Of a DNA stretch of 64,000 bases, positions 17,050 to 18,993 are shown piece after piece. The DNA comes from Eledone cirrhosa (taxonomy: Eukaryota). Within the stretch, counting starts at the first letter, position 1; each line of letters opens with the position of its first letter. The notes beneath the pieces were generated by a model. It searched no databases. It was not told the origin of the DNA and saw nothing but the letters and a program-made list of their open reading frames with translations. A program made the position numbers and the translations under genes. The stretch spans positions 126,976,001 through 127,040,000 of the forward strand of contig OZ024740.1 in the NCBI GenBank assembly GCA_964016885.1, given 5' to 3'.

Positions 17050-17100
17050 ACTGCTATATATATTTCGGTGACAGCCATCTTTCGCTGTAGTCCTCAGCAT
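17050..17100 (-). ncRNA. Hammerhead motif with (UA)n stem III
   Basis: - strand: atg-CTGAGGA-ct-acagc(gaaagatg)gctgt-cacc-GAAA-tatata-TA-gcagt. Confidence 0.7.
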
Positions 17101-17224
17101 TTCGGGATTTCGACACCCGGGTTATGGGCTATTACACTCCACCATTGTCTCACATGCTCTTAATACACAACGCACCGTGATAGTCTAGAGATTGATTCTG
17201 ACACAGCCTTTCTAATTTGGTCAA

Positions 17225-18560
17225 AATTTTCCAAATCTTTCTAACTTTGAGATTGGTTATAATACACACATTTTATTTGAATATCTTATTTTATTATTTT
17301 ATCATCTTATTCCTTCTACAATTTTATCATTTTTCTGTTTACTTATTTGCTTATATTATATTATTTTATTTTATTTTATATTATTTTATTTCATTTTACT
17401 CTACTTTACTTCTTTATTTCTTTATTTTATACTTATTTTTTAGTCTTTTACCTTTTCATTTCATTCTATTGTTCTCTTAATTTCTTTTTTTTTAATTGTT
17501 TTATTATTTTTTATTTTCTTCATTTTATTGACTTTTATTCCTTCATATGCTTGCCCCCCACCACAAGAAATAGTGGCAGGACGGATGCCAACACACACAC
17601 ACAAAACCTTCTAAAATCAGTAGCAGTAAGACTTAAGCTGACTGCAGCACCAACACCAATGCCAACATAAGGGTAGAGGTCAGGTGTACTTAACAATAGC
17701 AAAAACAAACACTACAGATCGCCCCACTTCAGAAAGAATTTCTAAAAACTTTTGACTGAGGAATGCTCTCACAACTGACCAATGGGAGGAGAGGATCTTC
17801 CAAACCTTTCTAACTTTCAGATTGGTTATAACACACACATTTTCTTTGATTATCTTATTTTATTCTTTTAACGTCTTATTCGTTCTACCATTTTATCATT
17901 TTTTTTTGTTTACTTATTTGCTTACATTATCTCCGGTGGATTGGCAGTATCGGTAGAGGGTCGGACGCCATGCTTTCCAGCATAGTTACGTCCCTTTACG
18001 ATCTGAGTTCAAATCCCGCCGAGGTTGACTTTGCCTTTCATCCTTACGGGGTCGATAAAATAAAGTACCAGTAATGCACTGGGTAATTACTGGCCTAGTG
18101 CCTAAAGTAGAAACAATTATCTCATATTATTTTATCTTATTCTATCTTATTTTATTTTATTTTATTTTACTCTATTTTTCTTTATTTTATTCGTATTTTT
18201 TAGTCTTTTAATCTTTTCGTTTCATTCTATTTTTTTTTTTATTATTTATTATTTATTTTTTTTTTTTATTATCTTCATCTTATTGCCTTTTATTTCTGCA
18301 TATGCTTGACCCCCCCCCCCTCCACGCCCCCCAGCACCATCACGACAAATGGTGGCAGGTAGATGCCAACACACACAGGCCCTTCTAAAATCAACAGCAG
18401 TGGGACTTAAATCTGACCCCAGCACCAACACCACTACCAACATAAGATGTACTTAACAATAACAAAAACAACCACTACAGATTGCCTCGCCTCAGAAGGA
18501 ATTTCTATAGACTTTTGACTGAGGAATGTTCTCACAACTGACCAATGGGAGGAGAGGATG
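17225..18560. repeat. ~570-bp tandem duplication; second unit interrupted by a SINE
   Basis: ctttctaacttt..gattggttataa at ~17237 and ~17806; ctcacaactgaccaatgggaggagaggat at ~17768 and ~18531. Confidence 0.85.
17934..18115 (+). mobile_element. tRNA-derived SINE with 8-bp TSD
   Basis: A-box-like tggcagtatcggt, B-box-like gagttcaaatccc; TSD attatctc at 17926 and 18116; seven related copies in the window. Confidence 0.9.
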
Positions 18561-18713
18561 CCCTTTGACGCTGAAATTCGTTTGTTTAAATTCATATGAT
18601 TCCAGTTCCTCATAGAAACAACAACCCAACTAGGAACTGAGCATATCAGAGTATTGACAAAGTTAAACAACTCAACAACATGTGTACTCCTCGTCTCTAC
18701 CCCACAAATTCGG

Positions 18714-18765
18714 ACTGCCTGAAGAGGTCACAGCCAAAGATGGCTCCCACCGAAATATATATATA
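18714..18765 (+). ncRNA. Hammerhead 5' part running into (TA)n
   Basis: actgc-CTGAAGA-ggt-cac-agcc(aaagat)ggct-ccc-acc-GAAA-(ta)n; homologous to 17050-17100(-). Confidence 0.7.
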
Positions 18766-18993
18766 TATATATATATATATATATATATATATATATATAT
18801 ATATATATATATATATATATATATATATATATATATATATATATATATATATATATATATATATATATATATATATATATATATATATATATATATATAT
18901 ATATATATATATATATATATATATATATATATATATATATATATATATATATATATATATATATATATATATATATATATATATATATATATA
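18756..18993. repeat. Pure (TA)n microsatellite, ~238 bp
   Basis: Direct reading; one of dozens of (TA)n/(CA)n/(GA)n tracts in the window. Confidence 0.98.

Follow-up and report, generated by a model that had tools for sequence, protein, structure and literature searches.

A probable 5′-truncated, inverted-arm Hydra-type Penelope-like retroelement between TA microsatellites of Eledone cirrhosa, and the proposed part of its (UA)4 hammerhead motif in insertion

Positions 16905-18755 of the window (i.e., of the whole 64,000-nucleotide stretch of the Eledone cirrhosa genome analysed here) are very probably a single copy of a Hydra-type Penelope-like retroelement (PLE), truncated at its 5′ side, carrying an inverted arm and lodged between two (TA)n runs. 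On this reading its hammerhead motif, with a (UA)4 stem III predicted to form only in dimers, belongs to an RNA on which reverse transcription would be primed at two sites, and a loss of ~50 nt would have brought the motif up against a run of (TA)119. The family structure, the ORF motifs, the repeat number of four, the (TA)n flanks and the preference for ends at two places downstream of the motif (~50 and ~150 nt) are what the genome itself displays, and the priming steps are argued from related elements.

The arrangement of the locus is given in Table 1. An earlier note on this DNA had the letters and coordinates of the two motif copies and of a 3′ half at 26245 right. Copy 1 reads CTGAGGA...GAAA at 17063-17097(-), followed by (TA)4 (17055-17062) and GCAGT (17050-17054), and copy 2 reads ACTGC-CTGAAGA...GAAA at 18714-18755(+), followed directly by (TA)119, which is, as had also been said, the longest of the 64 pure (TA)≥6 tracts in the window. 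Neither is an intact hammerhead: copy 1 (17050-17100) is without the 5′ strand of stem I and without the G10.1-C11.1 pair (z -0.69), and copy 2 has two stem II substitutions when read against the family alignment. The CTGAGGA of copy 1, which had been taken for a ribozyme core, is the reverse complement of 3′ UTR sequence (17085 onward on the plus strand); it is a chance product of the inversion junction and no core by descent, because the 3′ UTR joins the inverted arm there and TCCTCAG was found at the junction position in none of the 18 other copies covering it. At the distal end the element abuts (TA)n, as do 21 of the 23 long-ended family A copies in the end map. Within the 3′ UTR at this locus, 17351-17796 and 18117-18559 duplicate each other (78%), and a SINE-like repeat is embedded at 17934-18127; the family A copies L057 and L059 have this repeat in the same place, which suggests that it moves with the element. 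The repeat beyond the tract is SINE-like too. Taken together, the locus reads as one 5′-truncated family A insertion with an inverted arm, and PLE copies of that shape have already been described, as the available parts of two papers tell (PMC8557442, PMC3846280).

Table 1. Features of the insertion and of related motifs in the window
Feature	Positions	Strand	Remarks
(TA)20, left flank, putative target microsatellite	16865-16904	.	distal element end adjoins it
Family A tail, closing with a predicted AC-rich hairpin	16905-17005	-	88-93% identity to other copies; end map
GCAGT (stem I 3′ strand), AATAAA, T-rich proximal end region	17006-17054	-	
Inverted-arm 3′ hammerhead part: half of stem II, GAAA, (TA)4; core lost at junction	17055-17088	-	
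Inversion junction, 4-nt overlap CTGT common to inverted arm and 3′ UTR	17085-17088	.	
Family A 3′ UTR	17085-18713	+	
Main-arm 5′ hammerhead part: stem I 5′ strand, CUGAAGA core, stem II, GAAA	18714-18755	+	
(TA)119, ribozyme (TA)4 fused to right flank; GCAGT absent after it	18756-18993	.	
SINE-like repeat past the tract, outside this insertion	18994-19180	+	80-84% identity to other window copies
Family B fragment, 5′-truncated, between two TA runs: stem II end, GAAA, (TA)4, GCAGT, proximal end	26238-26307	+	
Family C motif	32673-32715	-	
Family C motif	32836-32893	+	

The motif is abundant well beyond the window. A loose core pattern matches 16 times in the window against 3.4 ± 1.9 times in shuffled sequences, and the pattern of core, GAAA and (TA)≥3 matches 6754 times in the 3.0-Gb genome, with no match for the reversed control. 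Exactly (TA)4-GCAGT with both stem I strands accompanies 5374 of these 6754 cores in the genome pattern search; the statement that no single copy has both strands of stem I is thus true of the window but not of the genome. An Rfam scan of the window returned no hammerhead family among the 150 matches listed of 155, only microsatellite-driven microRNA matches. The copies at 17050 and 18714 belong to one family (A), and the half at 26245 to another (B), the two being alike in stem I and (TA)4 and different in stem II. This lone 3′ half is indeed present at 26245-26269, but it is a piece of the sister family, and it begins within stem II rather than at the cleavage site. The type I layout, palindromic (UA)4 stem III and AUA triplet recognised in the earlier note are supported by the 5374 copies and by fold predictions: the CUGANGA and GAAA cores, helices I and II, the G10.1-C11.1 pair and an NUH cleavage triplet, predicted to be AUA, are all there (pairs were read in 134 copies). 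Helix II has a conserved C.C mismatch (123 of 134), and its pairing is kept across the families, one position being C-G in 74/134 copies and U-A in 48/134, and a second G-C in 69/134 and G-U in 50/134; these changes are two family-level events and not many independent ones.

The Penelope-like partner that had been supposed for the motif was found, in the form of an upstream RT/GIY-YIG ORF with Hydra motifs. A query with 17085-17350 gave 42 matches, and in most of the 19 other loci read the sequence continues to the motif on the downstream side and enters an ORF on the upstream side; in eight stretches of 9.9 kb (L075-L082), an RT-like frame with an RDD motif and then a GIY-YIG frame lie upstream of the motif and on its strand. 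All ORF copies seen are broken. The nearly full-length L082 measures ~5.5 kb from ORF start to element end and has a long 3′ UTR and internal duplications; 3′ UTRs are 1-2.4 kb long. In family A only, an N-terminal RWK and a DKT (in place of DKG) are read in L082 (MRWKAF, HADKTN) and DKT in L080 (HADKTN). Read by eye, the endonuclease region of family A has CNCRNPELC (CxCX5C), CKLC (CxxC) and CRH (CxH), with CCHH absent, and that of family B has CNCRDPSLC, CNLC and CRH, its related ORF lying ~0.95 kb upstream of its motif. Pfam gave GIY-YIG matches below the cut-off (E 0.002-0.009) and no RT match. Judged on these motifs, read by eye against the published features of the clade, families A and B are very probably Hydra-clade PLEs.

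Three more broken PLE ORFs lie in the window, at 13139-14851(+), 38476-40069(-) and 40242-41028(+). They were considered as partners and rejected, as no link between them and the motifs appears in 54 loci; the PLE ORF adjacent to the motif at L028 was rejected too, being mostly on the opposite strand, which points to a chimera. The remnant at 38476-40069(-) is similar to the Hydra-type proteins that families A and B encode. Some 200 nt past the GIY-YIG PLE remnant at 40242-41028 lies a degenerate hammerhead-like motif (41230-41272, +) with a 6-bp stem II and a GTCA/TGAC stem I. An RTE-like RT frame of 807 codons (23849-26272, -) has the family B fragment at its 5′ side and a TA run at its 3′ side, and the frames at 3022-3899(-) and 7052-7435(-) are presumably Helitron Rep-helicase-like pieces.

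The repeat number of the motif is nearly constant. Among 98 copies consecutive along contig 1 (the first 100 of the pattern matches, less two), n is 4 in 92, 3 in three and 5 in three; a separate pattern for n=5 in family A gave 139 matches, a count not comparable to the denominators of 6754 and 5374. Only 24 of the 6754 cores are followed by (TA)≥7, and of these 11 continue into GCAG with n=7-10, two continue after a small deletion and 11, window copy included (L042 is uncertain), stop in the tract. L037/L038 have a small deletion between TA repeats at the place where the window copy stops. All six tracts with n>10 are without the 3′ strand of stem I, and the largest n with this arm kept is 10. 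The motif's (TA)n slips slightly, and is no notable source of long microsatellites. What had been claimed as the birth of TA repeats comes down to the occasional slip (n=3 or 5 in 6/98 copies, n=7-10 with the arm in 11/6754), and the long tracts supposed still to fold have lost a strand of the fold.

Further evidence comes from where the copies end. None of the 98 consecutive copies has its 3′ end at the motif, and 94 of them end ~50 or 135-160 nt past it, mostly in (TA)n. In family A, 38 of 62 ends fall at +30-70, one at +118 and 23 beyond +120; in family B 34 of 36 fall at +30-70, with one long end and one at +13. The tail between proximal and distal ends measures ~95-100 nt in family A and ~95-140 nt overall. 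At least four TA units stand within ~190 nt downstream in 91 of 94 de-duplicated copies, and the 3′ (TA) flanks have a median of 11 units and a maximum of 69, so (TA)119 exceeds every sampled flank. To judge from these flanks, (TA)n would be the insertion target. A telomerase-like addition of TA on the primer side was considered and rejected, the 3′ flanks being no longer than the 5′ ones (14 pairs, medians 12.5 and 9.5, p=0.35) and no different from other tracts of the window (p=0.40), both comparisons being of low power.

A natural control is offered by a third family (C), of which the window has two inverted motifs set head to head between TA runs (~32607-33087). As stem III it has a non-repeat palindrome, AUGAUCAU, followed by A, with 4797 exact copies in the genome. 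At the loci read it ends into (TA)n, with a short end at ~+52 and a long one at ~+190, in a two-end layout like that of families A and B, and no ORF of family C was seen there. The tails of the three families have the blocks ACTCCG, CGTYGAGTRCT and ACCA in common, and no common tail fold was found across them (z -2.4 to +0.3). AATAAA stands within a few to ~20 bases after the motif in all three (in the window, in 16905-17054, -). Since family C reaches (TA)n with a stem III that is not TA, the targeting of (TA)n can do without a TA stem III, and the notion that the ribozyme guides the choice of target is not supported.

The earlier note had proposed that RNA self-cleaved to end in (UA)n anneals to genomic (TA)n and primes there, and that copies seed an expanding TA repeat that still folds. 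As the main pathway this is extremely unlikely. It would suit the presence of a short, perfect TA repeat where cleavage is predicted, the 11 copies that stop at the motif and the expanded stems of n=7 and 8, predicted to fold as monomer hairpins, but the copies do not end preferentially at the TA (none of 98, with just 11 of 6754 cores stopping there in (TA)≥7), an outcome that the earlier note itself had held to speak against its proposal. Besides, n is four in 92 of 98 and does not exceed 10 where the 3′ arm is intact, and family C arrives at (TA)n by another stem. Moreover, in PMC8557442 GU precedes the cleavage site in every one of the 26 Hydra hammerhead entries of File S2, and (TA)n insertion is recorded in File S1 for 26 of 27 Hydra families. 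Because of the end map, priming by self-cleavage is refuted as the main pathway. The long TA run at 18756 is likely a landing site and no part of the ribozyme, since the motif holds four TA units in thousands of copies and the element ends further on.

The starts of copies bear on whether cleavage serves a small minority of insertions. (TA)≥7 directly precedes GCAGT in 24 family B and 20 family A matches, and ~23 of the 39 examined 3′ halves that follow (TA)≥7 start at the motif, with no core upstream. The 5′ junction lies at CATATG in about a third of each family, with 20 of 60 copies in A and 13 of 35 in B (three copies in these counts are unanchored, and the deeper family A breakpoints are partly subfamily differences), that is, 120 nt (A) or 67 nt (B) upstream of the motif and at ~18593 in the window. 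Copies beginning at CATATG span the cleavage site, which implies an uncleaved template; the palindrome itself may mark a hot spot of microhomology, the place where transcription starts, or the terminus of a short non-autonomous element. That a few insertions (~0.2%, among them the window arm) used self-cleaved RNA, or (UA)4 directly, for priming is quite unlikely. The 11 of 6754 cores that end at the motif into (TA)≥7 are what such priming would leave, and the 3′ halves starting at the motif are what cDNA running off a cleaved 5′ end would give. Both sorts of copy are, however, accounted for by 8 nt of TA microhomology without any cleavage, the CATATG junctions, which require uncleaved RNA, are far commoner, and the other off-site 3′ ends, at +13 and +31 in 2 of 98 copies, leave no evident excess at the motif, the numbers being small.

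The preferred reading, with two starts on uncleaved RNA, finds its model in the Anolis PLE PAc, for which the available part of the report describes RT starts at two internal sites bounding a tail, and in vitro insertion left unchanged by hammerhead mutants (Frangieh et al. 2024, PMC11167929). The observed ends would fit this two-start model with a longer tail. By the example of published relatives, the GIY-YIG domain would nick genomic (TA)n on both strands, the RT would begin cDNA at two internal sites of the uncleaved RNA, one per strand, and a long and a short arm would then be joined head to head at microhomology. Head-to-head pairs at all loci examined combine a long and a short end in 17 of 20 cases (16 by script, L020 by the end map); the remaining three are short and short, two of them among the loci selected because they stop at the motif, and none is long and long. 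On contig 1, family A motifs at 40903480(-) and 40911408(+) lie head to head at a distance of 7.9 kb and have short and long ends, and this pair is a candidate long insertion. The short arm in the window, which is without its last ~50 nt, would most likely owe this to a deletion or mis-join between the motif (TA)4 and the flanking (TA)n, with the consequence that the core now runs into the target tract, whether the latter was long already or grew later. Priming at the motif could also have produced the run at 18756 in the window copy, and is the weaker account of the two; the DNA of the eleven motif-stopping copies would by itself be compatible with later deletion or with priming there.

How the motif might act was considered by fold prediction. 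With n=4 the monomer stem III is predicted to have two pairs (+2.7 kcal/mol), whereas two family A RNAs (L002) give in RNAcofold a double hammerhead with an 8-bp intermolecular stem III as best fold, at -42.4 kcal/mol against 2 x -17.6 (-35.2) for the monomers; the helix III palindrome, AUAUAUAU, is predicted to form a self-duplex. Dimer folding of family A would agree with the dimer model set out in the available part of PMC4209133. Natural copies with n=7 and n=8 are predicted to gain a monomer stem III (-1.1 and -2.5). The double hammerhead is the best predicted fold of family A and not of family B, where monomer and dimer alike are predicted to have the core paired with stem II and not open. 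This competing fold and the weak, all-AU stem III, as well as the low activity of metazoan PLE hammerheads (PMC4209133, available part), would be expected if the motif were a vestigial or non-catalytic relic, kept since it lies inside the part copied every time. Such a view is doubtful, as three families that differ in stem II have all retained the core, stem I and an 8-nt palindrome. It is also rather improbable that (UA)4 is a switch tuned by slippage and a back-up priming site in one, where RNAs with n≥7 would self-cleave alone and be cut off from the RT starts, masters would stay at n=4, and some insertions, the window arm too, would be primed on the cleaved end.

Much of this is already published for such elements, namely hammerheads with palindromic stems, (TA)n targets, inverted arms and tails. 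The Hydra clade consists of PLEs with a C-terminal endonuclease (EN+), including Hydra-1_Obim of Octopus bimaculoides (Craig et al. 2021, PMC8557442). As far as the available part of that paper goes, the present families are like this clade in RWK, DKT, the CxCX5C linker, CxxC and CxH around a conserved E and N and the absence of CCHH, and in a 3′ hammerhead with palindromic stem III, (TA)n insertion and 5′-truncated inverted copies. On the other hand, their hammerhead differs from that of Hydra-1_Obim, families A and B have AUA where the 26 Hydra rows have GUH, the ~5.5 kb of L082, an element with a 3′ UTR of the 1-2.4 kb class, exceed the general <3 kb of the clade (a tendency and not a diagnostic feature), and the tail is ~95-140 nt long instead of 30-40 bp. 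With the metazoan PLE hammerheads of Cervera and de la Pena (2014, PMC4209133, available part), they have in common the type I fold, a long helix II, a 5-bp helix I, G10.1-C11.1, the palindromic 15.2-16.2 region that lets those ribozymes work as dimers (only predicted here), opposite-strand pairs 100-700 bp apart and thousands of truncated copies; unlike those, families A and B are without the extra nucleotide between A9 and G10.1, and have the conserved C.C mismatch in helix II (123/134) and a palindrome that is a dinucleotide repeat. The likeness to the Anolis Poseidon element PAc (PMC11167929, available part) lies in the two ends past the hammerhead that bound a tail, the AC-rich stem-loop, the AT-rich targets and the cutting and extension of both strands, which here would be by analogy; in PAc, however, hammerhead and ORF start overlap and the tail measures 30-40 nt, whereas here no ORF was seen past the motif and the tail is ~3x longer. 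Non-LTR retrozymes, head-to-tail tandems of short units that bear a hammerhead and have no ORF in the available part of their description (10.64898/2026.07.22.740005), differ from the present copies, which are single or head to head and attached to a PLE ORF. No published report of a (UA)n stem III was found in the literature covered, a partial sample that takes in a minor share of the PMC8557442 supplement. New are a pair of families in a known clade, with an AUA triplet, tails of ~95-140 nt, a longer 3′ UTR and long and short ends together in 17 of 20 pairs.

In conclusion, three high-copy families in one genome amount to a natural experiment on PLE copying. All three tell that the RNA template for copying reaches well past the hammerhead on both sides, and the genomic pattern of ends agrees with the result in vitro that insertion can do without cleavage. 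The pairing of long with short arms, and a long tail with blocks common to the families, make these elements a substrate on which the priming of both strands by one RT-endonuclease could be tested.
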